A DNA stretch of 64,000 bases. Origin: Halobacteriovoraceae bacterium (GTDB lineage: Bacteria > Bdellovibrionota > Bacteriovoracia > Bacteriovoracales > Bacteriovoracaceae). The stretch covers positions 352,001 to 416,000 of the forward strand of contig CAVRCF010000005.1 of the NCBI GenBank assembly GCA_963719505.1, given 5' to 3'. The position numbers and the translations under genes were made by a program. Positions within the stretch are counted from its first letter, which is position 1; each line of letters starts with the position of its first letter. The notes under the pieces are model-generated. The model worked only from the letters and a program-made list of their open reading frames with translations. It was not told the DNA's origin and ran no database searches. This document shows positions 6,959-34,114 of this stretch, piece after piece.

Positions 6959-7690
6959 TTAAACTAAGTTAGCTTTGTCTTTTAAGAAAACCATTTTTTT
7001 CGCCGTATAAAGGGCAATTAGGCCGTTAAGAAGGTATGATTCTTTGAAACCAATATACATGAGGTCATACTTTAATTTCTGTTCAGCAGTCGCATCATAG
7101 ACAAGAGCGATTTGTGCTAAACCAGTAATACCTGGCTTAACAAAATGTCTATCAGAGTAGTTTGTTATTTCTTTGTCATAAACATTAGTAAATTCTGGTC
7201 TCTCGGGACGAGGTCCAATAAAAGCCATATCTCCACGAAGGACGTTTAGTAATTGAGGAAGCTCATCAAGGTGAGACTTTCTAAGAAAGGCACCAAGTTT
7301 TGTAATTCTTGGATCACCGCTCCAACTTAAAACGTGACCAGTATTAACTTCAGCGTCCATCACCATCGTTCTAAACTTTAAAATTTTAAATTCTTTCCCA
7401 TCTTTACCAATTCTAACCTGCTTAAAAAGAATATCTCCACGCGAAGAAATCTTTATTGCCATAGCCACGACAATTAAAATGGGAGAGAAAAGAAGAATCA
7501 AAAAAATAGCGAAAGCTTTTTCCCAAAATAAATTTAAATAATTGACCTTATCAATATCAGAATCAATTCTGTAGTGATCGAAGAAGTATTTGAAAACAGG
7601 GTTTTTCCACTGTTGGGTGTTTTGAAAATCACCAACGTCTTTTAGAAGTAAACCATTTAATGAAGGTGTGAAGAAACCAGTCGTTCTCAT
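6959..7690 (-). CDS. Priming undecaprenyl-phosphate sugar-1-phosphate transferase (bacterial sugar transferase family)
   Basis: FKQVRIG..KFRTM, DPRITKLG.FLRK.HLDELPQL.NVL.GDM..IGPRPE, KPGITGLAQ. ATG 7690 has a GGAG RBS; the ORF track starts at 7726. Confidence 0.92.
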   Translation of the reverse strand: MRTTGFFTPSLNGLLLKDVGDFQNTQQWKNPVFKYFFDHYRIDSDIDKVNYLNLFWEKAFAIFLILLFSPILIVVAMAIKISSRGDILFKQVRIGKDGKEFKILKFRTMVMDAEVNTGHVLSWSGDPRITKLGAFLRKSHLDELPQLLNVLRGDMAFIGPRPERPEFTNVYDKEITNYSDRHFVKPGITGLAQIALVYDATAEQKLKYDLMYIGFKESYLLNGLIALYTAKKMVFLKDKANLV

Positions 7691-7804
7691 TTTTATTAAG
7701 CTCCAATGCGTAACAGTATGTGTCATTTATTTACACAAGTTTTACAACATCTATGGAGATGGTTCTACTAGGTTCTCTAAAACCTGTAAATTCTTCATTC
7801 TTTT

Positions 7805-10759
7805 CTAAAAAGAGGCTTCTAGAGCTGATTCTAATTTTTTATTGAGTAAATCTAGGGATTTAGGTGATATTTTCTCTCTGGGATCGAGTTTGTTAAGTTT
7901 TAGTGTTGAGACTGCTTTCAGCAGATCCACGGCACTCTTGCTTTTGGATTTCTCCAAGAAAACGAGTTTACGGTAAGTATAAAGGCCTCTGGTTGCCAGT
8001 TCAAACTTCAAAGCTGTCGCAATTGATCCTGAGCTTTTTGGGTAGATCATAAAAACATCTGTCTCTCGCCCATCGAGTTCAAAATAAGGATAATTTTGAA
8101 CGGCTGCCAAGTGCCAATCTAAATAAGCTTTTAGCCCATTTTTCCTCGCTTTATAAAGCCAAAAACCAAAAGTGTACTCTGGGTTATCCACCGGCTTTAC
8201 TGATCCATTATAAGCCCCCCACTTGCCCTTAAGCTTCTTGGTCTGAGACTTTTCGATTGATGAGTAAAGTCCTAAATCAAAGAATTTATTGAGCTTGTAG
8301 AGAGACTGATCACCTTCTCCAAAACCACTGAGAAGTAACTTTGGAAAATTCTTTTTTAGCCTCAAACCCTGGGTCACATCTTCATCAACTTTATTTGAAT
8401 ACCCTTGGGCTTCGTCAGAGAAACTTTGATAAATTTTAACCCCAAAAGCTTTGCTCAGTTTTTGGTAGACTTCATAATCACTTTGAGATTCAACACTAAA
8501 AGCTCCAAGATAGGTGAAAACTGAGTCCATTTGGTTTTGACTAGCGAAAGCTAAAACCTCAGAAAGCTCTTTTGACTGCTCAATACTAGGCAGCCCACTA
8601 AAGGTGGTAAAACCTCTTTTACTTAATTCCCTAAGGGACTTCATTCGTAATTTCTGAGTAAAGGCCAAAACTTTTGGGTCTTCAAAGTAAACTTTAGGGA
8701 AAGGATCAAGCCCAATAAAGCCCACTGGAAAGTCAGGCTTCTCTAAAGACAGTGGGATATATTTGTAAATAACAGAAGCAGACCAAGTAAAATCGTCTCC
8801 CTTAATAGAAAAACTCGTTCGACTCTTAATCTTATCCACACTATTTTGAGCTTTATTTTTAACAAGAATATACAAGACCTCAAAGGCCGTAAGCTTCTTT
8901 GAAAGAAGTTTCTCTCCAATTATTTTAGGTGCAAGTTGGTAAGACTCATGATTCATGGTCATTGAGGCCAATTGTTTTTTAACTTCATAAACTTCAAAAC
9001 TCTTATCGTCTTCAAAAGAAAAGTTAAAAGTGCGCTCAACACTATTATTACTAATCTTAATCAGTGAAAAATCCTCTTCGCCTTTCACAGAAGAAAGCTC
9101 TATATCTTTGTGGGTTACCTGTGCACTTAAGCCGAGGCTTCTTCCAAGAACTTCCACTTGAACTTCTTTTAGCTTTTTTGTTTCATCCAAAGAGCTTGCA
9201 AGTTTAGAATAATCGAGCTCCTTTGCTGATGAGAGTTGATCTAAAAAAGAATTTGCCTGGTCACCTTTATTAATTGGGAAAAGAACCAAAGAATTCAGAC
9301 TAATAGCTGTCTTATCACCACTAAATTTTAATATTATCTTTTTGTCAGTTACCCTAACTTTTGTTTTATAAAATTTAAAGATTGATGACATAAAAAGTTC
9401 ATAAGGATTTTGAGAGTCTTGGAAAGAGACAAATTCAAAGCGAAAATAGTCCTCTAAAAATCTCTCAAAGCTGTCTCTTTGCTCCTTTATAAAAGGCTGT
9501 GAGTTTATCGAGACCTCTCTTTTCTTCCAAAAAGGAATATCCCAATAACCCAATTTTTCTATATTTACCCAAACATGATAAAAGTCATTGGGAAGGTCAA
9601 TGCGAAAGGAGCCAGAAGTAATATCAATTGTAGATTGATCTAACCGCGAGCTGTACTGGGAATCGTCAACACTTGAATATTCAGGGGCCACAAAACCAAA
9701 GCCATCTTTTCTATTGTATAAACTGTGGGTCGTTATCGTTTGATAGTTCGAAATATCTCTATCTCTCAGCTTTGCAAAATTAAAAACCTTAACAAATGGA
9801 GGTGCTTTGGGATAGATCTGAGGCAAAAGTGTAAAATCTGTAAAAACGAACTCCTTACTCGTTTTCTCCCCTTGTCCATCTGGATCAACAACGACGAACA
9901 TTTTCTTCAAACTTTTTAAATTAACACTTTTATAATTCTTACTAGATCCCCTCTCTCCTTGGTAACGTCGAAGTTCAAACTCTAGCCAATTCTTGCCAGG
10001 CTTTACCAGTACTTTAAAATTTGCTTGAGTCCAGTAACCTTTTGTTTCAGTGTCTTGAATCGTAAAGTAAAGCAGATAGTTTGAGTCTGTCGGGTTTGAA
10101 AGATTAAAGCCAATTCTATCGTATTTAGTAAAATTATAGTCCTCTAAAAGTGAGGCGTTAAAATTAATATATTGTCCTATCTTTGCTCGATATACTGAAT
10201 CAAAGATTAACTCCTTCTTTTTGGCCATCACAACTTTTGGAGCTTTCTTATTTTTTAAAGTTGAAACCTTTGTTTTTGAAAAACTAAAAGGCAAATGTTT
10301 TGAGGTCTCCTTTAATAAAACATTATCCACCCAAAGAGTTCCCGGAGAATTGAGCCTGAACCATAGCTTTAAAGACTTTTTAACCTTGAAGGTTTGAGTC
10401 ATTTTCGACCAATCAAAAGAGCCTGTCTCATTTTGAAATATATCTTTAATCCCACTGCCATTATCGTAGAAAGCTCTAAAAGAATAATATTTTCCTTTTT
10501 GAATCTTTGACCCCTTGAGCATAGCACTCAGTTGATAGAGGCCAGGCTTTAGATCATCGAAATAAAAATAGAGAGTTTGTTCTTCACCAAAATCTGTCAT
10601 CATTTTAACAGAGCCCTTCTCAGACGCTCCATTTGAATCCATTTCAAAGGATCCAGAACCCCATGACGCAGCTCCCCCTAAACCTTTATTAAACTTAAAT
10701 TCCTTGCCTATTGAATCAATGGATAAAAGAACAGATAATAAAAGAATGAAAAACGCCAT
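7805..10759 (-). CDS. Large secreted multidomain protein, probably carbohydrate-binding/glycoside hydrolase-like
   Basis: Signal peptide; CBM-like jelly-roll segments (GTLWVDNVLL); galactose-binding-like segment (YNRKDGFGF..FRIDLPN..Y.V.V); C-terminus resembling GH123/DUF4091-type (GFWLY..G..AYLDW..YP..G....LKFE...G...YR.L). Recognised from memory only. Confidence 0.5.
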   Translation of the reverse strand: MAFFILLLSVLLSIDSIGKEFKFNKGLGGAASWGSGSFEMDSNGASEKGSVKMMTDFGEEQTLYFYFDDLKPGLYQLSAMLKGSKIQKGKYYSFRAFYDNGSGIKDIFQNETGSFDWSKMTQTFKVKKSLKLWFRLNSPGTLWVDNVLLKETSKHLPFSFSKTKVSTLKNKKAPKVVMAKKKELIFDSVYRAKIGQYINFNASLLEDYNFTKYDRIGFNLSNPTDSNYLLYFTIQDTETKGYWTQANFKVLVKPGKNWLEFELRRYQGERGSSKNYKSVNLKSLKKMFVVVDPDGQGEKTSKEFVFTDFTLLPQIYPKAPPFVKVFNFAKLRDRDISNYQTITTHSLYNRKDGFGFVAPEYSSVDDSQYSSRLDQSTIDITSGSFRIDLPNDFYHVWVNIEKLGYWDIPFWKKREVSINSQPFIKEQRDSFERFLEDYFRFEFVSFQDSQNPYELFMSSIFKFYKTKVRVTDKKIILKFSGDKTAISLNSLVLFPINKGDQANSFLDQLSSAKELDYSKLASSLDETKKLKEVQVEVLGRSLGLSAQVTHKDIELSSVKGEEDFSLIKISNNSVERTFNFSFEDDKSFEVYEVKKQLASMTMNHESYQLAPKIIGEKLLSKKLTAFEVLYILVKNKAQNSVDKIKSRTSFSIKGDDFTWSASVIYKYIPLSLEKPDFPVGFIGLDPFPKVYFEDPKVLAFTQKLRMKSLRELSKRGFTTFSGLPSIEQSKELSEVLAFASQNQMDSVFTYLGAFSVESQSDYEVYQKLSKAFGVKIYQSFSDEAQGYSNKVDEDVTQGLRLKKNFPKLLLSGFGEGDQSLYKLNKFFDLGLYSSIEKSQTKKLKGKWGAYNGSVKPVDNPEYTFGFWLYKARKNGLKAYLDWHLAAVQNYPYFELDGRETDVFMIYPKSSGSIATALKFELATRGLYTYRKLVFLEKSKSKSAVDLLKAVSTLKLNKLDPREKISPKSLDLLNKKLESALEASF

Positions 10760-10786
10760 AACAAGTCTCTTTAAAAAGTAATATTG

Positions 10787-11812
10787 ATGTATTTTACACT
10801 CAAAAACTCAACTTTAAAAATTTTAAAGCTCTTTGGCCTCTTCCAGCTCTTTCGCATCAAGAACATAGATAAAATTCCTATCCTTTGCTATCACGGAGTC
10901 TCAATAAATGATGAACATGAGTTTATGCCATCAAATTATATGAGATTTGAGACGTTTAAAAGTAGAATTCTTTTTTTGAAGAGAATGGGCTACAGGATCA
11001 TCAGTCTGCAAGAATCTTTAGAGATGGTTAGAAACAAAAACATTGAAAAAAACTGTATCGTGATCACCATCGATGATGGTTTTACACCAATATTTGACGA
11101 ACTAGTCCCCTTTCTCATAGATCAAAATCTGCCCGCCACAATTTATGTCACATCTTATAAATCTAAATATGAAGTCCCTATTTTTCGCCTTGTTGCTCAA
11201 TACCTTTTTTGGAAATCTGAAAAAAATATTGAATTAGAAAAAATTGATATCGAAAAAGCTGATGGAACTAAGCTTGAGCTCAAAAAAATGCGCACTGAAG
11301 AAGAGCTTTGGGAATTTATAACACTTTGTGAACAGACATGTAAAAGAAAGGAGAGGTTTAGGATTCTTCATTCACTAGCTTCGGAATTCAATTTGGAACT
11401 AACGCCCTCTATTATCAAAGCACACTCAATTGCAAATAAAGAAACTCTCACTAAATTTGGCCAACATAAGAATATCAATCTGCAGCTTCATACACACTCC
11501 CACAAAACGAAGTTAACAGCTCTAGGATTTAAAAAAGATATTATTAAAAATATTGAGTATCTCGAGCAAACCGTATCACATCCACTCGTTCATTTTTGCT
11601 ACCCAAGTGGGCACTGGGAAGAGGAGATGATTCCGATCTTAAAAGAGTTAAACATCCAAAGTGCAACGACCTGTGACCTAGGGCTCATGGATAAACAAAC
11701 TGATCCCTATAAGATTCCAAGAATTATCGATTCTGAGTCAATCAGTGAAATTGTCTTTTACGCCGAAATCGTAGGCCTCTCGTCATGGCTTAGAAATCTC
11801 CTCAATAAATGA
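10787..11812 (+). CDS. Polysaccharide deacetylase (CE4/NodB; IcaB/PgaB-like)
   Basis: ILCYHG, motif 1 TIDDG, metal-binding HTHSH, FCYPSG, IPRI. TTG at 10784 is an alternative start. Confidence 0.88.
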   Translation: MYFTLKNSTLKILKLFGLFQLFRIKNIDKIPILCYHGVSINDEHEFMPSNYMRFETFKSRILFLKRMGYRIISLQESLEMVRNKNIEKNCIVITIDDGFTPIFDELVPFLIDQNLPATIYVTSYKSKYEVPIFRLVAQYLFWKSEKNIELEKIDIEKADGTKLELKKMRTEEELWEFITLCEQTCKRKERFRILHSLASEFNLELTPSIIKAHSIANKETLTKFGQHKNINLQLHTHSHKTKLTALGFKKDIIKNIEYLEQTVSHPLVHFCYPSGHWEEEMIPILKELNIQSATTCDLGLMDKQTDPYKIPRIIDSESISEIVFYAEIVGLSSWLRNLLNK

Positions 11813-14800
11813 ATCTTGCACTTTTGCACTCTCAACAAAGGTAGCATGAGGGACATCAAAGGTGACTATTTTAATGTCTCCTTTGATAACTCCACCCCAA
11901 CCAAGTAAGGAATCCGAATAAAATCCCTTCTGAGTAAGAGGGGCCCTGAAAAGAACCATATCACCGTCGTAAGAAGATACGACGTGCTCCTTCATACACT
12001 TAAAATTATTTTTTTCTATTTTATAATATCTTAAATGATGAGGAATTATTCTTCCTGTCTTTTCATACTTTGCTATTTCTTTCTCTTTAAAAAAGGAGCT
12101 AATTCTATAGAAGAGTGAGTCCTTTAACCGTTCAAAACGTTTTTTTAATGTGATATAAGGTTTGAATTGAAGATTAGGTCCTGAAGTATCAAACATTATG
12201 AGCTTGCCCACCTCAACATCAATCTTTTTTAATTCGATTGCCACTTCTAAAGCTAATAATCCTCCCATAGAGCCGCCAGCGAGGAATACTTTCTTACTAT
12301 CGACGGTATTAACAATTTCTTTTGCATAATGCACGGCCATCTCTTTAATCGACTGATGGAGCTCACTGATTCCGTCCACACCACTGGCCTGAAGACCATA
12401 AACAGCTTTATTCGCCGCGACCTTTAAGCCCAGGTCTCGATAATTTAAAACATTTCCACCGACTCCATGAAACATAAATAAAGGGATACCATCATTACCA
12501 TCTCTTATCTTCACAACACAAGTCGATGCCCTTGAGTCGCCTAAATTTTTATCTGAAGTTGATGAAATCTTTTTTGCTTTTAATTTGAGATCAATGAGTT
12601 CAGAGATTAAAAAGATTGTTGGATAGTCAAAAAGCATACTCAATTCAAGTTGGATGTCGAACTTATTTTCGATTTTAGAAAATAAAGTGACTGATAAAAT
12701 TGAATGTCCGCCAATATCAAAAAAGTTATCTTGTATTCCAAAATCATTTTTTGCCAAAACCGACACCCACAAATCTTTTACCGCTCTTTCGGTCTCAGTC
12801 TTGGGCTCCACCCTCTCAAGCTTTGTAGAGGGTTTTTGGCCACCTGACAAAAGACTTAAAGGACTTGGAAGATTCTTTTTATCTATTTTGTCATTTAGAG
12901 TTTTAGGAAAAGAATCAAGCTTAATAAAGTTTGATGGAATCATATAAACGGGTAGACTCACACTGAGAAACTTTCTAAGTTCTAGATGATTAAAATCACC
13001 AATAATATAAGCCACTAGTCGAACATCACCTGGAATATCCTCTCGAGTGATTACAACACAAGAGGTGACACCTGGACTTTTAGCAATTTGAGCCTCAATC
13101 TCTCCAAGCTCAATTCGATAGCCTCTTACCTTCACTTGACCGTCGTTTCTTCCTAGACATTCAAGATCACCATTATAATTCCACCTGGCAAGATCTCCAG
13201 TATTATAAACCCTTGTCTTAAGTCTCTCGTTAAAAGAGAATACTTTTTGGGTTAAATCATCTCTTTTTCTATAGCCTTTAGCTAAGCCTTCACCGGCAAT
13301 AAAGAGTTCACCAGTTGCTCCTATTGGAACACTCTGACCTCGCTCATCTAGTATATATACCTGGGTATTGTCTATAGGTTTACCGATGAGCATTTTCTTG
13401 TCATCTTTCTTTATCTTTTTACATGTCGACCAGACAGTCGTCTCAGTTGGACCATACATATTCCAGACATCTTGTGTTTGCTCTAAAAGAGTTTCGGCTA
13501 AATCCAAAGGAAAGGGCTCTCCCCCACAAAGAACTTTAAATCCTTCTTTTGCTTGCCAACCTGAGGCTAAAAGAAGTCTCCAAGTAGAAGGAGTGGCCTG
13601 CATCGCCGTAATTTCTTTATCGGATATAATTGTCTTTAAGGAATCTCCGTTAATGGTTTGTGCTTTGCTAGCGATAAAAACAGAACCTCCCACCAAAAGA
13701 GGAGCGTATAATTCAAGTACCGCAATATCAAAACTTAAAGTCGTCACGGCCAATAGACTTGTTGAACTCTTTAATCCAGGAGTTTTCACCATTGATTGAA
13801 GGAAGTTTGAAACACTCCTGTGAGTGAGTTCAACTCCTTTTGGAAGGCCTGTTGAACCTGAGGTATAAATGACATACATCAGGGCATCTAAATCGACTTT
13901 CGGAAACTCACATCTGTTAAGAGATTCATTCTCAGTTAACTCACTAAGGTCAACAACAGTGAGGCTTTTTGAGAACCTCTCTTTATATTTGCTACTAGCA
14001 ATAATAATATTTAAATCAGATGTCTCAACCATATAGTCAATACGATCCTTTGGAAAGGATGGCTCCAGAGGAATATAACCGGCACCCGCTTTCATAATAC
14101 CTAAAAGCGCGATCAGCATTTGACTCTCTCTATCAACACAAAGACCAACGAGATCCCCTGGCTTAACCCCCCTATTGATTAAGGATGAAGCATAACGATC
14201 GGATAGATTTAAAACCTCTGAGTAAGTAAAACTTTTCTTTTCACAATAGATTGCTGTATTATCTGGAAATTGAAGACAGCTTTTTTCAAATAATTCACTA
14301 ACAGTAAGTGATTCATTTTCGCACACGGTAGCATTCCAGCTGTTTTCTAACATAAATTTTTGATCATCAGTTACAACATCAATTACTCCTAGAGGGCTAT
14401 CCAATAAATTGAGAATTGATTTAACCAGTAGCTCGAAACTCTCCTTGATTCTCGTAATAGTGATCTCACTAAAAAGATCAACTCTATAAACAAAAGCCCC
14501 TTCTATTTTATCTTGGCTGGCTTTAACCCAAAGATCTAAATCAGTATGGGTAGTATTTGTTTTTCTTTTGACATGGGAAATTGGATTTGAATCAAAGGTA
14601 GAACTTCGATTTGAAACTTCCTGAAAGGTAAAGAAAGACTGAAAGACAGGGGATCTAGATGTATCTTGACCAATTCCTAAAAGTTTAACAACGTCTTCAA
14701 AGATCACCTGCTCATTATCAAAACCTTGAAAACAGGCGCTTGCCACATTTTTAATAAAATTTTGTAGCTCCATCTCTTTTGAAAGCTCAGTGCGAATAGC

Positions 14801-17362: not shown

Positions 17363-17363
17363 A

Positions 17364-22379: not shown

Positions 22380-22408
22380 ATAAAACCTTAATAAATATCT
22401 TTTAATAC

Positions 22409-22435: not shown

Positions 22436-22438
22436 CGT

Positions 22439-24097: not shown

Positions 24098-24129
24098 TAT
24101 TTTCCTCTAAATCATTAATATATAAACCC

Positions 24130-24157
24130 ATTCTATCGTGTTATAGTAAAATATCAA
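24130..24157 (-). promoter_or_regulatory. Possible sigma70-type promoter for wza-PPTase
   Basis: Minus strand TTGATA-16 nt-TAGAAT in the divergent intergenic region. The region is AT-rich, so a chance match is possible. Confidence 0.35.
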
Positions 24158-24180
24158 AGAATTTAAAGTGGGAAGATTTA

Positions 24181-25272: not shown

Positions 25273-26690
25273 ATTTAATTAGTAAATTGAAAGAAGGACA
25301 TTGGCCAATTTTTCTATTGAGCTCCATGAGTTCGATGGCCAACCTTTTCTTACCCATTATCCTTGTCCGGCTCATCAGTCCGGAGCAAATGGGTATCTAT
25401 AAAATATTTTTCTTATATCTTTCGATGATTCCTTTTCTTTTTCTCGTTGGTGGTCCAGTAAACTCAGTCTATTACTGGGTTGGAAAAGATGAATCTCAAA
25501 GAATGCCCTTTATTCAGTCATGCTTTCAGCTATCAATAATTCTTTCAATTCCTATTTTGTTGATTGGCCTTTCATTTGGAAGTTTTATCTCCGATTATTT
25601 AAAAATGTCCCACGAGGCTTTTATTTATATGACCATTGCCAGTTTTTTCTGGGTTCCCTCAGGTCACTTCGGAGAGACGTCCATCGCTTTTGGAAAAACT
25701 GCACGTGGCAGTATTTTTGGAACCTCATTTGAAATGTTTAAGGTGATATCTTTCATAGGTATCGCAATTTTCTTTAAAGACTTGGTTTTAATTTTTAAAG
25801 CCTACACAATTATTCTTTTTATAAAGTTCTGCTTTAATGTCGCTTGGAGTATAAAGCATGGCTATATAGGATTTAGTCTTGATTGGAAAAGGATAAAAGC
25901 GGTCTTTATGTATTGTCTTCCCATCTCCTTAGCTGGGCTCTTAGGCTTTTTTGTCGATAAAGTTGACCTTCTTATTCTTTCTGGATTTTTAGACCCTGAT
26001 GAATTTGCCTTTTACTCAATGGGCTGCTTGGTTATTCCTCCTTTAATCATGTTGGATATGTCCGTTCACAAAGTCCTTGTGCCCAAAATTTCTAGTCTTT
26101 ATTTACAAGGAAAAAAGTTTGATGCATTAGAAGTCTACAAAAAAGCAGTCAGTGATATTTCGTTTATCATGGTTCCTGCAATTTTTGGACTCTTCTTTTT
26201 TGCCGATCCTATTGTTGAACTTCTCTATACAAGTAAGTACGCTGCATCAGCAATTTATTTAAAGATTTTTGCCATAAGCTATCTCATCTATACAATACCC
26301 CACGATGCGATCCCAAGGGCAACTGGTAGAACAGGTTGGATACTAAAGATTTATCTCATAACAACCCCCATCTCTTTGGTTTTAGTCTTTGTAATGGCCA
26401 AGTATTTCGGTGCAATTGCAGCACTATCTATCGCAGTGGCCTTAAAGTTTCTACCAAAGATTGCTGGCTTGCAGTTTTCATGCTCAATTATGGACTGGCG
26501 CTTTAGAGATCTTTTTCCCTATAAGCGACTATCAATTTACTTTGGCCTATCTTCGCTTTTGACAATTGCATGTCTCCTTGTAAAGTCTATGTTTCCAACG
26601 CCTCTGATCTGGTTTTTTGTTTGTTCTCCACTTTTTGCCGCGATATACCTAGGAACACTGTATTACAATGTAAAGGGCAAAAATGAATAA
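25269..26690 (+). CDS. wzx: Oligosaccharide flippase (Wzx/MOP family)
   Basis: About 12-14 TM segments; LVRLISPEQMGIY, VDKVDLLILS, AFYSMG, ADPIVELLYTSKY. Confidence 0.85.
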   Translation: MNLISKLKEGHWPIFLLSSMSSMANLFLPIILVRLISPEQMGIYKIFFLYLSMIPFLFLVGGPVNSVYYWVGKDESQRMPFIQSCFQLSIILSIPILLIGLSFGSFISDYLKMSHEAFIYMTIASFFWVPSGHFGETSIAFGKTARGSIFGTSFEMFKVISFIGIAIFFKDLVLIFKAYTIILFIKFCFNVAWSIKHGYIGFSLDWKRIKAVFMYCLPISLAGLLGFFVDKVDLLILSGFLDPDEFAFYSMGCLVIPPLIMLDMSVHKVLVPKISSLYLQGKKFDALEVYKKAVSDISFIMVPAIFGLFFFADPIVELLYTSKYAASAIYLKIFAISYLIYTIPHDAIPRATGRTGWILKIYLITTPISLVLVFVMAKYFGAIAALSIAVALKFLPKIAGLQFSCSIMDWRFRDLFPYKRLSIYFGLSSLLTIACLLVKSMFPTPLIWFFVCSPLFAAIYLGTLYYNVKGKNE

Positions 26691-27729
26691 GGTTATTCAC
26701 CTTTTTTTTCCTGGTCCATTTGGAGGAGCTGAAAAAGTCATCCTTAAAGGACTTGAAGACTTGAAAGAAAAAGTCTCATTGTCGCTTTGGATAATAAAGG
26801 AGACTCGCTGTCCAGAACATGCAGACTATTTTGAAAAAGAATGCTTAAGGATGGGTATTGATAATGAAATGTTTGAGTGCCAAAGTATCTTTGATTTTGG
26901 TCTTTTAAAGAGATTAAAATCACAGGTTCCAAAGAACGCCATTATTCATGCTCATGGAATGAAAGCAAGTTTTTATGCAGCCTTTCTTCCAGGTCAGTTG
27001 GTTATTACTCACCATGGCCATACTTCACACACTTTAAAAGTAAAAGTCTACGAGTTTATACAAGAACTTATCATGCGAAAAGCAGACAGAGTTATCTCTG
27101 TCTCACACCCTATGCATGAAGAGCTTGATAGGAAAAATATTAAATCTTCCCTTATAGAAAACATGCTTTCAATGGAGCCTGCGATTAGTACTTATCAGGA
27201 AACCCAAGAGACGCATTTTGTTTTTATTGGCAGACTATCTCCTGAAAAAGGAGCGAATATCCTCGTTACAGCTTTAAAGAATATGCCTATGGTTAAGCTT
27301 AGTATTGTGGGAGATGGCGTTGAGAAGGAGCAACTCGAAAAACGAGTCATAGATGAGGAAATTAAAAATATTGAGTTTTTAGGTTTTCAATCTGATGTCT
27401 CACCTTATCTAAAAGATGCTCATGCGCTTATTATGCCTTCACTGCGAGAAGGACTTCCCATGACACTTTTGGAGGCTATCTGTGGAGGACTCCCTGTTAT
27501 TGGTAGTGATGTAGGAGGGTTAAAAGGACTCGTAAAACAAAATGGTATTCTTGTTCCACCAGGAGATCCAGTGGCCCTTAATAAGGCCATACAAATTTTT
27601 GTGGCAAAAAGAGATGGTTTTACACAGAATGCCCAAGCTCTAAGCGAGATTTTTATTAACAGATTCTCAGTGAAAAATTGGAGCTATAAGACAGTTGAAA
27701 TTTACAAAAGGCTCTCTAGCCAAAGCTGA
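26683..27729 (+). CDS. Glycosyltransferase family 4
   Basis: GGAEK, IHAHG, FIGRLSPEKG, PSLREGLPMTLLEA. Confidence 0.9.
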   Translation: MNKVIHLFFPGPFGGAEKVILKGLEDLKEKVSLSLWIIKETRCPEHADYFEKECLRMGIDNEMFECQSIFDFGLLKRLKSQVPKNAIIHAHGMKASFYAAFLPGQLVITHHGHTSHTLKVKVYEFIQELIMRKADRVISVSHPMHEELDRKNIKSSLIENMLSMEPAISTYQETQETHFVFIGRLSPEKGANILVTALKNMPMVKLSIVGDGVEKEQLEKRVIDEEIKNIEFLGFQSDVSPYLKDAHALIMPSLREGLPMTLLEAICGGLPVIGSDVGGLKGLVKQNGILVPPGDPVALNKAIQIFVAKRDGFTQNAQALSEIFINRFSVKNWSYKTVEIYKRLSSQS

Positions 27730-28919
27730 AAGTCGGCACCAACTTTCTTATCACCAAAGCTTTTGGAAAGTTTGTGATTAGTATCTAAAGCAGTAAGTTT
27801 AAATGGCTCATCAACTTTTAACTGGCTTAAAGTCTCTATCCATTCCTCAGTTGTTTCACAGTGTATATAATCTTCTTCATCTAGTCCTGCACCTTGGACT
27901 CCCATCTTTGTAGAAATAATTTTTCTCCCAAAGGCATAGGACTCTAAAACTTTTATTCTGGTTCCAGATCCAAAAGTAATAGGGGCAACTGTATAGTGAC
28001 ATCCTCTGTAGGCATCTTTTAAATCAGCAATAAAACCGTGAATAACAACGCCCTTTAGATTTTGATATTTTAAAAGCCATTCTTTTTTTCCTGAACCCAC
28101 GATATTGAGAACGATATCATCTCGATTTTTTATAACGGTAGGCCAAACATCTTCTAGTATCCACTTTAAGCCCTCTCGATTAGGTGCCCAGTCAAGTCTT
28201 CCCAAAAAGAGAATGTGTAGCTTACTACTTTCATTCGTTTCAAGAACTTGATCAAAATCAAGACCCAAAGGAGTGAGGTGAGAATTCTCTACATTGACCA
28301 TTCCATTAATTGTTGCTTGATCCTCCTCGGAAATGGGAGCCACTCCAAATGAGTGTTGTAAAACAAATTTTTCAAATTTTTCCACAAGATAAAACTGGTA
28401 CTTAAAAATAAGTTTTTTAATAATATTTTTTTCTTCCTCAGCTGACCTTCGCCACAAGTCACCTTCAATATTATGGGCCCGATAGATCACCTTAGCATCA
28501 CCGGTCTGAAAGCCCTCTCTATTTCTAGACAAACAGGCAGCTAAATGAAGCCCATCTAAGAGAATAAAATCATACTTTTCGATATCGAGCTTACGATCAA
28601 CAAACTCTTTATTACTTGAAGTATCAAATGATGAGAAAGTAAGTGGTGTAAAAGGTTTTGAGATAAGTTTAAAGAAAAAATACAGCAGTTTAGAAGGACC
28701 AAAACTTGCCACGGAGCGCTTTTTGACAAAGATTTTTCTAATTTTCCACTGCTTATGCATTACCCTGGGATCAATAATTTCATCGCTATTTGGAAAACAC
28801 ATAACATCCACTGTGACACCTGGACCAGCAACATTAGTAAGAAGTCTCTCTGTTGCCACGCGAGCACCGTCAATAGCCGGAAGAGTCCACTTGGGAATAA
28901 TCCAAAGGACTTTTATCAT
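27702..28919 (-). CDS. Glycosyltransferase family 4 (HNxE subtype)
   Basis: AHNIE, FLGRLDWAPNREG, PITFGSGTRIKVLES. Confidence 0.85.
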   Translation of the reverse strand: MIKVLWIIPKWTLPAIDGARVATERLLTNVAGPGVTVDVMCFPNSDEIIDPRVMHKQWKIRKIFVKKRSVASFGPSKLLYFFFKLISKPFTPLTFSSFDTSSNKEFVDRKLDIEKYDFILLDGLHLAACLSRNREGFQTGDAKVIYRAHNIEGDLWRRSAEEEKNIIKKLIFKYQFYLVEKFEKFVLQHSFGVAPISEEDQATINGMVNVENSHLTPLGLDFDQVLETNESSKLHILFLGRLDWAPNREGLKWILEDVWPTVIKNRDDIVLNIVGSGKKEWLLKYQNLKGVVIHGFIADLKDAYRGCHYTVAPITFGSGTRIKVLESYAFGRKIISTKMGVQGAGLDEEDYIHCETTEEWIETLSQLKVDEPFKLTALDTNHKLSKSFGDKKVGADFQLWLESLL

Positions 28920-29743
28920 TCCTTTTCCATTTCAATAAGAATTGCACCGCCAAACTTTTGTAAAGAAGGAAATTTCTTAAATAAGAAATGATCAAATTTT
29001 TCTAAAAACGAAACTCTTGGATCACTTCCCTTTCTGAAAAAACGATCAAAGCGCGCAAAAAGAAAAAAGGAGCTAATTGACGTTTTTGGGAAAACTTTTT
29101 TTATCGTTTCAAGATCCTCTGTTGTCAATTTTTTTTCATCATCTGTTATATGCAGTTCAAATGACATTTCTTTTGGAAAGAAAAATTGAACCAACTTAGT
29201 ATTGCGAATATCATCAAGTCCTTTTATCGATAAGGGCTCTCGAAAGATAGCACGCCCGCCTGGCTTGAGAAGCTTTTTGCATTCTAATAAGGACTTTTCA
29301 ATATCGATATGATGAAGAATATCAACACCGACAATAAGATCAAACAACTGTGGATTAAGTCCCGTATTTTCAGTCGTTCCTTCAATAAAGTGGATATCAA
29401 GATTATATTTCTCGCTTAAATTTTTCGCCGTCTTTACATTATTGGGAGAAATATCAACTCCCGTCACATTGTATCCAATTTTCCGAAACAATAATGAGTT
29501 AAGTCCAGGCCCAGAGCCAAAGTCTAGAAGCTTATCCTCTTTTTTGTAAAGATCAATGGCCCGCTTATACAGCTGCCAGTAACTATTCCAAGGTCTAGTT
29601 TCTTTTTGCTCAAGAACTGAGACGACCGGAGAAAAATCAACTTCTACATTTTGATTATATGTCTCAACATACCGATCGTAGTATTCTTTTTCTCTTTGTT
29701 GTCTTTTTGATAAACTCAAAACCTCTACCTCTGTGTTTCCCAT
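28916..29743 (-). CDS. Class I SAM-dependent methyltransferase
   Basis: LLDFGSGPG, GVDIS, FDLIV...LHH, LKPGG. Confidence 0.88.
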   Translation of the reverse strand: MGNTEVEVLSLSKRQQREKEYYDRYVETYNQNVEVDFSPVVSVLEQKETRPWNSYWQLYKRAIDLYKKEDKLLDFGSGPGLNSLLFRKIGYNVTGVDISPNNVKTAKNLSEKYNLDIHFIEGTTENTGLNPQLFDLIVGVDILHHIDIEKSLLECKKLLKPGGRAIFREPLSIKGLDDIRNTKLVQFFFPKEMSFELHITDDEKKLTTEDLETIKKVFPKTSISSFFLFARFDRFFRKGSDPRVSFLEKFDHFLFKKFPSLQKFGGAILIEMEKE

Positions 29744-30855
29744 GTGGACTCCAAATTTGAAGTCACAGTTTTATACAATGCTTTTAATGCTGCTAGGTTA
29801 ATTATAAAAAAATATAGTGGAATTCCAAGTACTTTTGGCCTAAATGAAAAAGAATTCAAGATAAAGGCAACTAAAACACTCGTGTAAAAAATGATTTGCA
29901 AATTAAGTATCGTCCATGCGAGAGGAGATGGATGATTAATCACGTCAGCGATTGAAAATAGTAAAAGTAAAATAGCAAAAACTGGTGCCAGCCACCGCAG
30001 CACTTTATGAGAAATGAGTTGAAAGCTTGCAACGGGATACTTCAATGGATTTAGAACACTTTTTGCATGAAGAAGACCTGTCATTCCACCTCGGATGACT
30101 CTCACTCTCATAGACCATTCAGTTTGTGGCTTTTTCGTCGTTTCTTCAAAACATATTGCCTGGGGTTCAGAGACCACTCTAAATCCTTTTTGAATGAAAA
30201 AGAGAGGCCCTGTGAAGTCCTCAATAATATTGGAAGGAAGTGGATGATAAGCATTTGTCCGAAAAGCGGTAATACAGCCAATGGATCCCGTCAGTGACCC
30301 TAGATTTGTCTGAGATGTTTTGATAATGCTCTCTAATTTCCAAAAAAGTTTTTGCCCTATTCCCATCTGGGTGCCTTGATCGTCTTTATACTTCAAATGA
30401 CCCGTTACCATTCCAACCTTTTGATCTGCAAAGCTTCGAACGAGCATCTTGACGGAGTCTTTGTCATATTCAGTCGTGGCATCGGAGAAGACGGTAATAT
30501 CACTTTTTATATTCTTCATTGCAATGTTTCGGGCTTCAGTTTTACCAACTCTCCCCTCAACTCTGACAAGTTGCACATTGGGAAATTGAGTCTTGACGAT
30601 ATTGTCGGTTTGATCTGAGGAAGCATCAGACACCACAATGATATCAAATTTGTCTGAGGGATAATCTATCTCTAATGTATTAATTAATTTATCACCAATT
30701 GATCCCTCCTCATTATAGGCCGCAATCATAAAAGTAACGGAAGGAGTTATATCTTCTTTTATGATTCTCTTTTTTAGAATAGAGCCCAAAATAATAACCA
30801 ATAGTGGATAAAAGAGATAAGGAAAGAGAATTAAAAAAATTAACCAAAGCGTCAT
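29725..30855 (-). CDS. Glycosyltransferase family 2, membrane-associated (PgaC/IcaA-like)
   Basis: AAYNEE, SDASSD, FSDA, IEDF, RVRVIRG; N- and C-terminal TM helices. Confidence 0.88.
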   Translation of the reverse strand: MTLWLIFLILFPYLFYPLLVIILGSILKKRIIKEDITPSVTFMIAAYNEEGSIGDKLINTLEIDYPSDKFDIIVVSDASSDQTDNIVKTQFPNVQLVRVEGRVGKTEARNIAMKNIKSDITVFSDATTEYDKDSVKMLVRSFADQKVGMVTGHLKYKDDQGTQMGIGQKLFWKLESIIKTSQTNLGSLTGSIGCITAFRTNAYHPLPSNIIEDFTGPLFFIQKGFRVVSEPQAICFEETTKKPQTEWSMRVRVIRGGMTGLLHAKSVLNPLKYPVASFQLISHKVLRWLAPVFAILLLLFSIADVINHPSPLAWTILNLQIIFYTSVLVAFILNSFSFRPKVLGIPLYFFIINLAALKALYKTVTSNLESTWETQR

Positions 30856-32300
30856 ACCGTTATTCCAAATTCTAACTTTTTATCTATTCTAGTTCCTTTT
30901 AATTTACTATGGGTAATGACTAAAGCCAAAATAATATAAGGAAATAAAAGATAGGTATGGGACAAAAATGTAATCGCTACTCCATATCCTAAAATAGCTA
31001 AAAAATAGTCTGGATGATCCTTTCGCATCAGCCAAGCTCTATACAAAGCGTAAGTCCAAAGTCCCATAAAAAGAGCCAAGGCCATAAAGCCCCCTTCTGC
31101 TAATGCTAAAACCCATGAAGAGTGGGCCGTCATATTTTTTCCCTCTGATCCGGTATCCCCATCAATAGCATAGCTTGAAAAATTACCAGTAAAGCCCCAA
31201 TATCCCACACCAAAGATTGGATTCCTAACGGCCATATTGGCGCCGGCTTTCCAAAAGATAATTCGATTACTAGTAGAGCCCTCAAGATCACCAGAAGATC
31301 TTTTCATTAAAGAAATGACTCCAACTCCCCCAACTACTGCAAGGATGAGAACAAGGACAAGATATTTAATTTTGGTTATTTTTAAAACAAGCCATCCACC
31401 TATAATAGCTGCGATTGCCAAGACGGCTCCTCGCGATTGAGATTCCCAAACAAGATAGGTTAGAGAAAAAAAAGTGATCGCAGCGAAAATCCAACTAAAG
31501 GGACGAATCTTAGATTTTAAAATAAAGAAAACAACCAATGGAATAACGAGGACAAAGATCGCCGCAATATCATTAGAATTTGAAAGAATACCGATACTTT
31601 GAAGCCTCTCACCTACTTCTTCTAGACCTGTTTTAGGAGTCATGAAAGATTGATAAAAAGAAATAAAACCCTTCTCAAGTATTGAAAGAATAAGAGCTAT
31701 CTTTACTAAAACTGCATCTCTTTCAGTTTCTAGTGAGTTTTGAATGAGAACAAAAACAATGACAGCTTTAGAGAATATTTCTATAAACTTTGAAACTGCT
31801 AGTCCTTGGTGATTTGAAAAAAAAGCCGATAAGAAAAGCCAAAAAGCAAACCCAAGAATAAAGAAAGTTCCCGTGTTGAATTTAAAATAAAATCTCTTAT
31901 TGATAACTTTACTGACAACAATACTTATCATGGCCAAATAAGAAACATCTCTTGGCATCGACGCCATCAATTGATTATCATAAGTTTCCCATGGTCTCGA
32001 AAGAAGAAGATAGACCAAAAAACCAATGGCATATTTAGGATTAATAACAGAGAGGATGATGAGAACACTGAACTCAATTGAAAAGAAAAAACCTTCCTCC
32101 CCCCAAGTCCCTAAAAAATTGATAAAAAGGCCACCTGCGAGAACGGGAAAAAGAAGCAAGAGAAATTTCTTGGAGTTGTTTGACCAATTCTCTTTTATAC
32201 CAGGACCATCTATGACGACAAAAAATGTTGTAAAAGAAAGAAGCAGCAAGCCCAGAAAGACTTGATGCGTATTAATAATAAGAAGATCAAAGTTTTCCAT
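30852..32300 (-). CDS. O-antigen ligase/Wzy-family membrane protein (probable polymerase or ligase)
   Basis: Multi-TM; SNSNDIAA, SQSRGA, NRIIFWK, NPIFGVG, TAHSSW (Wzy_C His). Confidence 0.8.
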   Translation of the reverse strand: MENFDLLIINTHQVFLGLLLLSFTTFFVVIDGPGIKENWSNNSKKFLLLLFPVLAGGLFINFLGTWGEEGFFFSIEFSVLIILSVINPKYAIGFLVYLLLSRPWETYDNQLMASMPRDVSYLAMISIVVSKVINKRFYFKFNTGTFFILGFAFWLFLSAFFSNHQGLAVSKFIEIFSKAVIVFVLIQNSLETERDAVLVKIALILSILEKGFISFYQSFMTPKTGLEEVGERLQSIGILSNSNDIAAIFVLVIPLVVFFILKSKIRPFSWIFAAITFFSLTYLVWESQSRGAVLAIAAIIGGWLVLKITKIKYLVLVLILAVVGGVGVISLMKRSSGDLEGSTSNRIIFWKAGANMAVRNPIFGVGYWGFTGNFSSYAIDGDTGSEGKNMTAHSSWVLALAEGGFMALALFMGLWTYALYRAWLMRKDHPDYFLAILGYGVAITFLSHTYLLFPYIILALVITHSKLKGTRIDKKLEFGITV

Positions 32301-32302
32301 CT

Positions 32303-33460
32303 TTAAGTTAAGCTATTTTCTTCTAAACTTTTGTCTATAGATTTTTGACTATAACCTTTTGCAAGCTTTGGTAAGGATCCTAGATCCACAGCCCCAAATT
32401 TCTCAGCACATAAAGAGACGGCTTGTGATTGAGTTGGGATCATGATCTCTTTATAAAAAACATAAATAAAAGCAAATACTAAACCTAGAAGAAAGCCAAC
32501 ACTTGCAAAAAGTCTTTTCTTTGGCCAAATAGGTGCCGTAGGAAGATTGGGCTTTTGTATGATTCCAATATAAGAATCAAGAGATCTTTTTTCAATATCC
32601 AGAGCAATATTAAAGTCATGATATTTTGTATAAAAAGTTGAAGAAATTTTAGCTGAAACTTCTTTATTTGAATTAAGTGATATTGATGCATCAACCGCAT
32701 CATTACTAAAGCCTTCATCTTCAAATTCTTTAAGCCATGATTTAATCGTATACCTTTTTTCTTTCAGAGCTAGAATTTTTGGATGATTGTCTTTATATTG
32801 CTTTTTTAAAGCAGCTATAGAAGTGTTTAGCTTATTTAATTCAGCATTGAGAACTTCAGGGTTCTTTGAGACAAGGGCACTATCGGCACCTTTTCTATTG
32901 GCCGTCTGAGTTGCGTTAAAAGAAGTAAGTCTTCTAACCATTATTCCCTTTACCATCTCAATAGTATTTATTCTCGATTGAATAAAGTGACCTTTTACAA
33001 GGTCTAATGTTTTAGAGGCAATCTCTTTTGCGATAAAAGGATCACTGTGGATAAAACTGACCTTATAGCTTTGACCACCAGTTGAATAGTATTTGAATCT
33101 ATCTCTTAAGAACTGTCGCTCTTTCGCTTTTACACTTTCGTCTTCAGAACCAGAATAGAGATTATAATCTTTTCCAATTTGATCGATGAAATCATCTGAG
33201 ATGGCCTCTTTAACCATTGAATCGATTGTAAATCTCATTTCGGGGACATTAAAAACCGAAGGAATAATGCCAGAAATAAGTGGATTTTGAAAATACTTAG
33301 AGTAAACATTTATTTCAAAATCTGCTTGATACTTCTTTTTCATCATTTGAGTAAGACTAATACTAAAGGCCAAACACAGAACGACGATAATACTCATTCT
33401 CCAGAAGTACTTGACAACTATATTTACAAGATCTCTTATAAAGACTTTATCATTGCTCAT
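32303..33460 (-). CDS. Polysaccharide co-polymerase (Wzz/GumC/Wzc N-terminal type)
   Basis: Two TMs flanking a coiled coil with YKDNHPKI; Pro-rich PNLPTAPIWPKK before TM2. Confidence 0.8.
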   Translation of the reverse strand: MSNDKVFIRDLVNIVVKYFWRMSIIVVLCLAFSISLTQMMKKKYQADFEINVYSKYFQNPLISGIIPSVFNVPEMRFTIDSMVKEAISDDFIDQIGKDYNLYSGSEDESVKAKERQFLRDRFKYYSTGGQSYKVSFIHSDPFIAKEIASKTLDLVKGHFIQSRINTIEMVKGIMVRRLTSFNATQTANRKGADSALVSKNPEVLNAELNKLNTSIAALKKQYKDNHPKILALKEKRYTIKSWLKEFEDEGFSNDAVDASISLNSNKEVSAKISSTFYTKYHDFNIALDIEKRSLDSYIGIIQKPNLPTAPIWPKKRLFASVGFLLGLVFAFIYVFYKEIMIPTQSQAVSLCAEKFGAVDLGSLPKLAKGYSQKSIDKSLEENSLT

Positions 33461-33990
33461 TATCTTGCCTCATTATATAGAACACCAACGACTGGTATAT
33501 CGAGATCACCATAGTAATCTCCGATTACTTCTTCTTTTAAATCTGCAGATTTTTTTGATTTTATCAATATAGCCCCATCAATTTTAATTGCAGGTAAAAC
33601 GCCAGGGTTACAAGAATCCTGATCAGTATTTATAAAGATAACATCATAGAAATCTCTACTATCATCTAATCCGATCGAATTATGATTTTTATTTGCCGAT
33701 ATATAGTCGACACCTTTGAAAGAGGATTTCGTGATACTGGAATCCTTTAAATCCACTCCTAAAAGTTTATCAAGGTTATCAAAACTGTCGGTACAATCTA
33801 TAATCAATACTCTTTTCTTGTAAAGAGAGTTGAGAATGGGAGAAACGCTTGAGATGAAAGTAGACTTACCCTCGCCTTTAAAATCAGAGATAACGACCAA
33901 ACTCTTAACCTCTCTGGAGGCCAACAAGTAATTAAGATTGGTAGCAATCTTTTCTAATTTAATCATTTGCTCATTCGAATCTTTAAACAT
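33460..33990 (-). CDS. Short, degenerate CpsD/CapB-like BY-kinase domain
   Basis: Walker A GEGKST, RVLIID, GVLYN terminus; altered Walker B and no Tyr tail. Confidence 0.7.
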   Translation of the reverse strand: MFKDSNEQMIKLEKIATNLNYLLASREVKSLVVISDFKGEGKSTFISSVSPILNSLYKKRVLIIDCTDSFDNLDKLLGVDLKDSSITKSSFKGVDYISANKNHNSIGLDDSRDFYDVIFINTDQDSCNPGVLPAIKIDGAILIKSKKSADLKEEVIGDYYGDLDIPVVGVLYNEAR

Positions 33991-34021
33991 TCTTCGCCTC
34001 AGTGTTAGTTTTAAAGTCTAC

Positions 34022-34038
34022 TGTCTAAATTTTAGACA
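34022..34038. promoter_or_regulatory. Perfect palindrome TGTCTAAA-T-TTTAGACA, candidate transcription-factor site
   Basis: Inverted repeat seen directly, in the leader of the kinase-wzz-wzy-GT operon. Confidence 0.6.
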
Positions 34039-34098
34039 ATATTGAAAACGCTATTTAGCTGAAATTACTAAAAAGTATAAACGCTATATACTATATAT

Positions 34099-34114
34099 AG
34101 CGAATAAGATGCCA
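34099..34114 (-). promoter_or_regulatory. Sigma54 (-24/-12)-type promoter for the 33990-27702 operon
   Basis: Minus strand TGGCAT-CTTAT-TCGCT (GG-N10-GC), ~110 nt upstream of ATG 33990. Confidence 0.6.

Follow-up and report, generated by a model that had tools for sequence, protein, structure and literature searches.

Gene content of the locus

The locus described here lies in a 64,000-nucleotide stretch of DNA (the window) from a Halobacteriovoraceae bacterium (assembly GCA_963719505.1, contig CAVRCF010000005.1, positions 352,001 to 416,000). In it, genes for a polyketide synthase (PKS), a nonribosomal peptide synthetase (NRPS) and a phosphopantetheinyl transferase (PPTase) stand among genes for the synthesis and export of a polysaccharide. 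This gene content is best explained as that of a Wzx/Wzy-type heteropolysaccharide locus with a dedicated NRPS-PKS line of its own, in a predatory bacterium resembling the Bacteriovoracaceae. The source assembly has a size of 3.69 Mb in five contigs, a G+C content of about 37%, and a completeness of 83.5%. Its HemB shares 71%, 67% and 64% identity with those of an uncultured Bacteriovoracaceae member, Bacteriovorax stolpii and another member of the Bacteriovoracaceae, which places the organism among the Bdellovibrio-like predators of this family. Gene content was established by open reading frame (ORF) calling and by Pfam and NCBIfam scans of the window, and domain motifs were read from the translations. 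A preliminary description of this DNA had placed the PKS, NRPS and PPTase genes inside a glycan locus at 6959..34114, and all genes that it named are present at their positions. The genes are listed below with the E-values of their matches. In the domain strings, A stands for adenylation, C for condensation, T for thiolation (carrier), KS for ketosynthase, AT for acyltransferase, ACP for acyl carrier protein, PCP-type for peptidyl-carrier-type, AMT for aminotransferase and TE for thioesterase.

6959..7726, minus strand: PGT, a small polyprenyl-phosphate glycosyl-1-phosphate (priming) transferase; Bac_transf 1.9e-56; TIGR03025 2.9e-73, below cut-off; syntenic orthologues 45-64% identical
7805..10759, minus strand: p984, a secreted GH123-like protein of 984 aa with CBM-like N-terminal domains, predicted to be a beta-N-acetylhexosaminidase-type glycan hydrolase (AlphaFold2/Foldseek, ESM Atlas)
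10784..11812, plus strand: CE4 polysaccharide deacetylase; Polysacc_deac_1 1.8e-13; motifs IDDG and HTHSH read
11783..17362, minus strand: NRPS of 1859 aa, C-T-C-A(Gly-type)-T-TE; Pfam finds two Condensation stretches, one AMP-binding, two PP-binding and one Thioesterase, with the order read from the sequence
17364..22379, minus strand: PKS, T(PCP-type)-KS-AT(malonyl-type)-ACP-AMT, without a loading A domain; Pfam finds PP-binding, KS, AT, PP-binding and Aminotran_3 (8.2e-53)
22439..23104, minus strand: Sfp/EntD-type PPTase; 4PPT_N 4.1e-21; ACPS 8.6e-11
23105..24097, minus strand: Wza/OPX-like outer-membrane polysaccharide export lipoprotein; weak matches, EpsE 2e-8, Poly_export and SLBB 3.7e-4; lipobox LYSC
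24046..25272, plus strand: family GT4 glycosyltransferase (a); Glycos_transf_1 4e-19; Glyco_transf_4 6.9e-16
25269..26690, plus strand: Wzx-type flippase; Polysacc_synt_3 3.6e-20
26683..27729, plus strand: GT4 (b); Glycos_transf_1 9.5e-31
27702..28919, minus strand: GT4 (c); Glyco_trans_1_4 1.4e-20
28916..29743, minus strand: class I S-adenosylmethionine-dependent methyltransferase; Methyltransf_11 7.8e-20; a variable member, present in some syntenic loci only
29725..30855, minus strand: family GT2 glycosyltransferase; Glycos_transf_2 1.5e-19; PgaC/IcaA-like 2.6e-25, below cut-off
30852..32300, minus strand: Wzy_C-family membrane protein (polymerase or ligase); Wzy_C 7.6e-17; TIGR03097 4.8e-16, below cut-off
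32303..33460, minus strand: polysaccharide co-polymerase; TIGR03007 2e-14, below cut-off; GNVR 5.2e-5; Wzz 4.4e-3 (weak)
33460..33990, minus strand: 176-aa P-loop protein, bacterial tyrosine kinase-like, without the C-terminal tyrosine cluster; Walker A motif GEGKST; CbiA 0.03 only
34168..35424, minus strand: p418, a conserved secreted protein of 418 aa at the locus edge; AlphaFold2 pLDDT 87.4; syntenic in other genera
35440..36924, minus strand: first TolC-family outer-membrane protein; OEP 2.6e-9; TIGR01844 1.8e-14, below cut-off
36943..38463, minus strand: second TolC-family outer-membrane protein; OEP 5.7e-8

The wza, PPTase, PKS and NRPS genes form one run in a single orientation, as had been described, with successive gaps of 0, 59 and 1 bp. 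The CE4 gene is convergent with the NRPS gene and overlaps its 3' end by 30 bp. The window NRPS is the only one of the 3.69-Mb assembly (83.5% complete), and both C-domain matches fall within that one ORF. The priming transferase, Wzx and Wzy-family components of the Wzx/Wzy pathway are all represented (Bac_transf, Polysacc_synt_3 and Wzy_C), and the Wzy_C match does not distinguish a polymerase from a ligase. The co-polymerase, the Wza-like protein and the P-loop protein have sub-threshold matches only (TIGR03007 and GNVR; EpsE, Poly_export and SLBB; CbiA). An XrtA/PEP-CTERM system was considered and rejected. The assembly, at its 83.5% completeness, has no PF09721 exosortase match, and the stp1, stp2, PEP_O_lig_1 and ChnLen matches in NCBIfam all lie far below their cut-offs.

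The genes for p418 and the two TolC-family proteins (34168-38463, minus strand) follow the locus in the same orientation and are syntenic with the locus in other genera. The locus probably extends to 38463, past the end first assigned to it. The earlier statement that no dedicated small-molecule exporter is present holds within 6959..34114 and does not hold for the DNA directly beside it, where the two TolC-family genes lie. No inner-membrane pump was found beside these two genes, and Wzx is the only inner-membrane exporter in or beside the locus. The 64-kb window contains no tRNA gene, and the GC content does not shift across the locus; nothing therefore points to a recent island.

The assembly line and its predicted product

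Both giant ORFs are intact, and all catalytic motifs are present. The PKS translation contains GGNS in the T domain, TACSTS, EAHGT and NTAH in the KS, GHSVGE and HAFH in the AT, and GMDSL in the ACP, and a YGK motif was read as well. The NRPS translation contains HHIICDG and HHLVWDG in its two C domains, two GGHS carrier motifs, and GGSMGG in the TE. We take these motifs to have the catalytic meaning commonly given to them. Ketoreductase, dehydratase and enoylreductase domains are absent from the window PKS in Pfam.

The closest solved relative of the AMT domain is that of MycA (6kfm/6kfu; E 5e-113), with 381 bits as against 190 bits for the best HemL. The combination of active-type KS, AT and ACP domains with an in-line class III pyridoxal phosphate-dependent aminotransferase closest to that of MycA supports a beta-aminating module of the MycA/ItuA type, as the preliminary description had predicted. 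In MycA and ItuA (mycosubtilin and iturin; also the McyE type), a KS-(AT)-ACP-aminotransferase series stands directly before a C domain, as it does here. MycA differs in being primed by a fatty-acyl-AMP ligase and in leading to a cyclic lipopeptide; neither feature is found in the window, whose PKS lacks a loading domain. The orthologues are primed with an amino acid (the window's genus has no A domain at this place), only glycines follow, and the setting is a glycan locus.

Most orthologous PKSs are about 2200 aa long and carry an NRPS-type A domain ahead of the first carrier. This loading domain passes TIGR01733 with 386 bits against a cut-off of 317, and its best single-domain match in the PDB is TycB, with 373 bits. 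Its pocket mostly reads DVQxxxHVVK, presumably a proline-like code. The nature of the loading domain bears on the suggestion that an iturin-like beta-amino lipopeptide is made as the lipid anchor of the polysaccharide. The KS-AT-ACP-AMT-C logic is indeed that of MycA and ItuA, but a fatty-acyl-AMP ligase and a starter C domain are both missing, and the N-terminal carrier is PCP-type (GGNS). Loading by a fatty-acyl-AMP ligase is rejected because the orthologues begin with an A domain for an amino acid. The lipid anchor, which the preliminary description had named as one site for the unit, is thus an unlikely one, and a lipopeptide acting as the anchor itself is barely credible.

The loading A domain is absent from the window's genus, from a genome of another genus (G136, in which uvrB precedes the PKS), and from the closest database relatives (56-80% identity). 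These relatives and a same-genus PKS orthologue (57% identity) have no PF00501 match and keep the carrier serine. The A-less form of the PKS is stable. A second NRPS-type A domain was not found in the source assembly (83.5% complete), where the best other stretches are 22-24% identical and acyl-CoA-ligase-like. Since the loading domain has been lost in the window's genus, the starter there is probably glycine, which would be loaded in trans by the sole A domain.

A different reading of the loss is that the line is a decaying remnant in the window's genus, with no product, and that the glycan locus alone is functional. The window PKS does begin at its carrier domain, 59 bp past the PPTase gene, the assembly yielded no further A domain of the NRPS type, and the same-genus locus of G002 lacks a PPTase as well. 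This reading is hard to reconcile with two intact giant ORFs that retain all catalytic motifs. In addition, another species shares the A-less form (57% and 48% identity) and keeps the carrier serine, and the form recurs among a clade of relatives in the databases and in G136, which belongs to another genus. Decay is therefore very improbable. Three close A-less relatives (P0004, P0005 and P0008) keep about 170 residues of unassigned sequence ahead of the first carrier, perhaps left over from the loading domain that was lost. In another family of the phylum, a genome (G048:C12, loci L025/L026) encodes a fused NRPS-PKS of 3603 aa with PPTase, p418-like, GT4a-like and GT4b-like genes alongside; the pocket of its loading A domain reads DFWNIGGIFK.

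The pocket of the window A domain, read at ten positions placed by GrsA-PheA numbering, is DILQLGMVWK, which we take to be a glycine-type code. DILQLGMVWK or DILQLGMIWK is found in 33 of 34 downstream A domains of the family loci, the exception being DILQIGAVWK in G112. The best single-domain PDB matches of the window A domain are a DhbF fragment whose A domain is that of the glycine module (5u89, 412 bits) and AB3403 (4zxh, 358 bits). According to the accessible part of PMC10510592, the 5U89 construct consists of the A domain and PCP of the first DhbF module, the DhbF modules are for glycine and threonine, and the AB3403 structure 4ZXI contains AMP and glycine. The window A domain looks glycine-specific on the strength of these matches and the pocket, in agreement with the glycyl unit proposed earlier. 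The NRPSs of two other genomes, G090 (L147/L148; ORF of 2950 aa) and G085 (L146), contain a second glycine-type A domain, and the number of glycine modules therefore varies between species.

Taken from domain content, the predicted product consists of a starter extended by one malonate, with beta-amination, and then two glycines. Such a product would be small, as had been expected, rich in amines, and not a lipid.

Co-occurrence of the line and the glycan locus

The distribution of the line was surveyed with the ACP-AMT part of the PKS in 237 species genomes of the family, from 69 genera, at a cut-off of E<=1e-90. Matches were found in 47 genomes from 15 genera. Six of the 47 are a different PKS with 36-43% identity; the five that were examined have no NRPS neighbour, and the sixth (G106) was left out. 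Setting these six aside gives 41 genomes with an orthologous PKS. The p984 gene is present in 44 of the 237 genomes. The PKS orthologue and p984 occur together in 40 genomes, the PKS alone in one (G103, where the contig ends), p984 alone in four, and neither in 192. An orthologue of the co-polymerase (>=41% identity) is present in 42 genomes, including 39 of the 41 with the PKS. Within g20, the PKS is found in 12 and p984 in 14 of 29 genomes; presence varies within genera, and it does so jointly. The co-occurrence that had been proposed as a test of the association is thus seen within the family for p984 and the co-polymerase, including in genomes where the two parts are unlinked. It does not extend to CE4, a variable member of the locus across genomes.

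Three genomes, G071 (99% complete), G072 and G034, keep p984, the co-polymerase and Wzy and have no match to the NRPS (E<=1e-20) or to the PKS-AMT. A glycan locus without the line fits an optional decoration. The pattern as a whole is one-sided, with three loci lacking the line and one line lacking Wzy and the co-polymerase, and it fits an optional tailoring module.

Positional coupling was studied by tblastn of the window proteins against 33 orthologue loci. Genes for Wza or the glycan GT4 enzymes adjoin the PKS in 24 of them, and three lie on contigs too short to judge. The other six have no wza or GT4 gene on the PKS side (G012, G125, G127, G069, G155 and G136). Wza-like orthologues with 37-58% identity stand next to the PPTase or PKS in 22 of the 33 loci. 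In G012 and G125, the locus is complete from PGT to the OEP genes and lies 80-93 kb from the PKS-NRPS-PPTase block on the same contig, and this block is missing exactly between CE4 and wza. In G012, metal-efflux and housekeeping genes surround the PKS. In G069, the PPTase gene lies between wza and p984 in the glycan locus, and the PKS and NRPS are on another contig. The PPTase likewise remains in the glycan locus in G034, where no PKS or NRPS was found. Since the two parts are unlinked and yet both present in G012/G125 and in G069, their pairing outlasts linkage in at least two lineages. The joint occurrence of line and glycan locus in about 40 related species suggests that the polymer carries an amine-rich, glycine-tailed side group. 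As a separate observation, the PKS and NRPS of G069 (C182; L152/L153) stand beside genes for a phosphoenolpyruvate mutase, a thiamine diphosphate decarboxylase-like protein, an aminotransferase, cytidylyltransferase-like proteins, a CDP-alcohol transferase and a TauD-like protein. This cluster points to the synthesis of a phosphonate head group or a phosphonoglycan.

The marker protein p984 appears to act on glycans. It has no Pfam match over threshold. Sub-threshold GH123 matches occur in p984 and two orthologues, with GH123_cat at only 0.014. An AlphaFold2 model built from 18 orthologues has a pLDDT of 79.6, and in Foldseek all listed matches to rank 22 (19 rows) are GH123 beta-N-acetylhexosaminidases, with E from 1e-17 to 2e-12 and TM-scores by target of 0.52-0.61. 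The ESM Atlas places p984 with GH123-like clusters at a score of 0.95. The pair D782-E783, a candidate for the adjacent Asp-Glu catalytic pair of GH123 enzymes, is invariant in the 18 orthologues. On the basis of the modelled fold, p984 is predicted to be a GH123-like hydrolase. This evidence supports the earlier label of a glycan-active protein, and the polymer probably contains beta-linked N-acetylhexosamine.

Candidate attachment to the polysaccharide

A sequence of steps can be proposed by which the line would decorate the polymer. The PPTase would prime the four carrier domains, and the starter would be held on the N-terminal PCP-type carrier, supplied in most relatives as a proline-like amino acid by the fused A domain. 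The KS-AT-ACP part would join this starter to one malonate, and the MycA-type aminotransferase would convert the beta-keto group to an amine, giving a 3,4-diamino acyl unit. The C-T and C-A-T parts would then add two glycines, with the one glycine-type A domain loading both, and the TE would off-load a short, amine-rich acyl-diglycine. We infer that the likeliest acceptor is the undecaprenyl-diphosphate-linked repeat unit, which would receive the acyl chain at the cytoplasmic face, on a hydroxyl or on a de-N-acetylated amine. Wzx would flip the decorated unit, the Wzy_C protein would polymerise it, and the co-polymerase and Wza-like protein would export the polymer. That the TE transfers diamino-acyl-diglycine to the lipid-linked repeat unit before flipping, yielding a polymer with cationic side groups, is a proposal that we favour tentatively, at close to an even chance.

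Several known systems share parts of this logic. In the synthesis of Nod factors, de-N-acetylation by a CE4 enzyme (NodB) is followed by N-acylation (NodA) with a carrier-bound acyl group from a dedicated KS and ACP (NodE/NodF). The window locus differs in having no visible NodA homologue, an inconstant CE4, and dependence on Wzx/Wzy. That a megasynthase TE can release its chain onto the hydroxyl of a sugar is known from mycobacteria, where the TE of Pks13 passes a mycolyl chain to trehalose. The window TE matches 13 PDB sequences, one of them the Pks13 TE (E 1.2e-7); this similarity is weak, and Pks13 has a lipid as substrate and a free disaccharide as acceptor. AlmEFG, which adds glycine or diglycine to lipid A in Vibrio cholerae, and DltABCD, which D-alanylates teichoic acids, each use an adenylating enzyme and a carrier to deliver an amino acid and so add positive charge. 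These systems consist of stand-alone A and carrier proteins with a membrane acyltransferase (AlmG, DltB/D), whereas the assembly line of the window locus is a multimodular PKS/NRPS with a TE at its end. Pfam and NCBIfam reveal no stand-alone A enzyme, small carrier, DltB/MBOAT or AlmG acyltransferase in the ORFs of 4262-40943.

A further system with a comparable pairing of pathways is that of carenaemin from Collimonas arenae Cal35, a PKS/NRPS product that depends on a Wzx/Wzy repeat-unit cluster. According to the accessible part of PMC8313283, this diffusible antifungal requires two clusters, one for a PKS/NRPS and, unlinked to it, one for a Wzy-dependent repeat unit, and its authors proposed that the peptide is attached to a lipid-linked sugar before flipping, a mechanism that is unproven. 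As far as that source goes, the Collimonas system is unlike the window locus in its unlinked loci, its ketoreductase-type line, its Gln-Ser-Leu core, and its small diffusible product. The window locus could work in the same manner: the peptide would be attached to a lipid-linked oligosaccharide in the cytoplasm, Wzx would flip the conjugate, and a small glycopeptide would then be set free to diffuse. The coupling would be the one proposed for Collimonas by Akum et al. 2020 (PMC8313283, seen in part), and a secreted GH123-like hydrolase could release the units. On the other side, the Wzy_C protein, the co-polymerase and the Wza-like exporter are conserved with the line and argue for a polymer. 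The Collimonas model is moreover itself a hypothesis, and its PKS/NRPS architecture, as given in the accessible part, differs. A released glycopeptide is accordingly improbable at this locus.

The literature searched, supplements aside, contained neither a description of the window locus nor a product of a line in which an amino-acid-primed KS-AT-ACP-AMT is joined to C-A(Gly)-T-TE, in accordance with the earlier statement that no characterised product of the architecture was known. The accessible part of PMC3870968 only lists phyla that hold such domains, and that of PMC12819058 concerns an unrelated fatty-acid-primed lipopeptide. The database names of the PKS relatives are all generic; one orthologue (P0029) is assigned by NCBI to a cultured Bacteriovorax strain. 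The locus would connect, by a link unproven as yet, three elements that are each familiar: amination of the MycA type, the aminoacylation of surface polymers in NRPS fashion, and export by Wzx/Wzy.

Homologues outside the family were sought with a profile of the AMT region, as the single PKS protein used as a query found no related loci. The profile scan of species genomes gave at least 80 loci. Among those listed, 13 belong to this family and 67 to Bacteroidota, Lysobacterales, cyanobacteria and others. A PGT or GT2 homologue lies within 10 kb in 22 of the 67 (12 PGT, 10 GT2). Where line and glycan genes do occur together outside the family, they are closely joined. In a Mucilaginibacter locus (L197), the order is PKS, C-A-T-TE, PPTase, response regulator, PGT, OEP-like ORF and co-polymerase-like gene. 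In a Lysobacter locus (L240), it is PGT, one unassigned opposite-strand ORF, PKS, NRPS, hydrolase and Wzx. In a Pfam scan of 14 loci, L200, L262 and L203 proved to contain clear glycan genes, L210 a Wzy_C gene, and L229 and L246 a phosphoglucomutase/phosphomannomutase gene each. The same scan showed a second Nostoc locus (L252) to have a different layout without glycan genes. It recognised nothing in L239, where GC is high and ORF calls are unreliable; tblastn finds a PGT there. In the Mucilaginibacter locus (L197:18227-18907) and in a Niabella locus (L262:17169-17885), an OEP-family ORF of about 230 aa lies between the PGT and the co-polymerase-like gene, at the position expected for Wza.

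These distant loci also furnish part of the case against attachment to a glycan, and other parts of that case come from the family itself. No PGT or GT2 homologue lies within 10 kb in 45 of the 67 listed loci from other taxa, and six of the 14 scanned with Pfam contain no glycan gene. Many of the homologous loci outside the family are three-gene cassettes among unrelated genes. Within the family, G155 (97% complete) has the PKS/NRPS, CE4 and p984 but neither Wzy (E<=1e-10) nor a co-polymerase orthologue, and housekeeping genes lie upstream of its PKS/NRPS. CE4, the obvious source of an acceptor amine, has no tblastn match beside the NRPS in most g20 loci. Co-inherited adjacent genes can mimic functional coupling, and linkage is broken only in g10 (three genomes), in G069, and partly in G013. 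The incompleteness of the source genome (83.5% complete) makes a separate loading enzyme possible. The reading of glycine depends on GrsA numbering and published codes and not on a predictor. The two TolC-family genes adjoining the locus could serve a small molecule. No dedicated transferase joining peptide to glycan is visible, and the TE is therefore assumed to carry out the transfer.

Several of these points would equally be expected if the line made a free soluble diamino-acyl-oligoglycine, linear or cyclised, that is released by TE hydrolysis or lactamisation and never attached to a glycan. The position in an exopolysaccharide locus would then reflect co-regulation or co-inheritance. The loci lacking glycan genes, the adjoining TolC-family genes and the missing joining enzyme are consistent with such a product. 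So are the great size of the wider PKS-AMT/C-A-T-TE family, with 6516 of the 8000 proteins scored at E<=1e-80 or better, and the frequency with which it stands alone. However, Wzx is the sole inner-membrane exporter available, and the glycan marker is kept in 40 of 41 genomes with the orthologue, unlinked cases included. Furthermore, wza and the PPTase gene abut with a 0-bp gap, and the PPTase stays in the glycan locus after the PKS and NRPS have moved. A free peptide is unlikely on balance, though it has to be reckoned with. The preliminary description had held that its proposal would fail if homologues mostly lacked glycan genes. This is partly the case, and for distant homologues only, with at least 22 of the 67 listed loci having a PGT or GT2 gene.

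In its widest form, the proposed decoration would be an undescribed one, a 3,4-diamino-acyl-oligoglycine built by an NRPS-PKS and transferred by its TE before Wzx, with a possible role in adhesion or resistance, and it would extend across phyla (Sphingobacteriales, Chitinophagales, Lysobacterales). This wider claim is possible and rather doubtful. Should attachment be borne out, we would know of no earlier case in which a Wzx/Wzy polysaccharide is tailored by a full PKS/NRPS line and not by a Dlt- or Alm-like minimal set. Part of a large orphan family, comprising thousands of amino-acid-primed KS-AT-ACP-aminotransferase proteins without a named product, would then gain a function. Attachment would also mean, for genome mining, that some clusters classed as NRPS-PKS hybrids are glycan-tailoring modules and not antibiotic clusters. 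A cationic surface polymer would be an addition to the little-known envelope biology of Bdellovibrio-like predators, where cationic side chains might help the cell to adhere to the negatively charged envelopes of its prey or to resist cationic agents. The natural variants, with the line present or absent, linked or unlinked, and with one to three glycine modules, are open to comparative chemistry.

Some further features of the locus edge and its neighbourhood can be recorded. The AlphaFold2 model of p418 has a helical N-terminal domain followed by beta-rich C-terminal domains. Homology searches with p418 gave no ESM Atlas match above 0.80, no Pfam match and no match under E 0.009 in a PDB profile search, and its Foldseek matches, with TM-scores of about 0.2, are uninformative. 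Promoter and terminator scans of the window gave hits at chance level (58 against 49.8+-6.0 expected; 19 against 12.2+-4.1) and are uninformative on operons. A gene of the tyrosine recombinase/integrase family lies at 47034-48029 (plus strand), 9 kb beyond the end of the locus. Directly past the second TolC-family gene, a BNR/sortilin-Vps10-like protein of 799 aa is encoded at 38544-40943 (plus strand), and its gene is conserved beside the locus in G002, G022, G186, G213 and G136. This gene is followed at 40944-43508 by genes for a transglutaminase-elicitor-like protein, a 177-aa ORF and an HTTM-domain protein, a trio that is unusual in bacteria.

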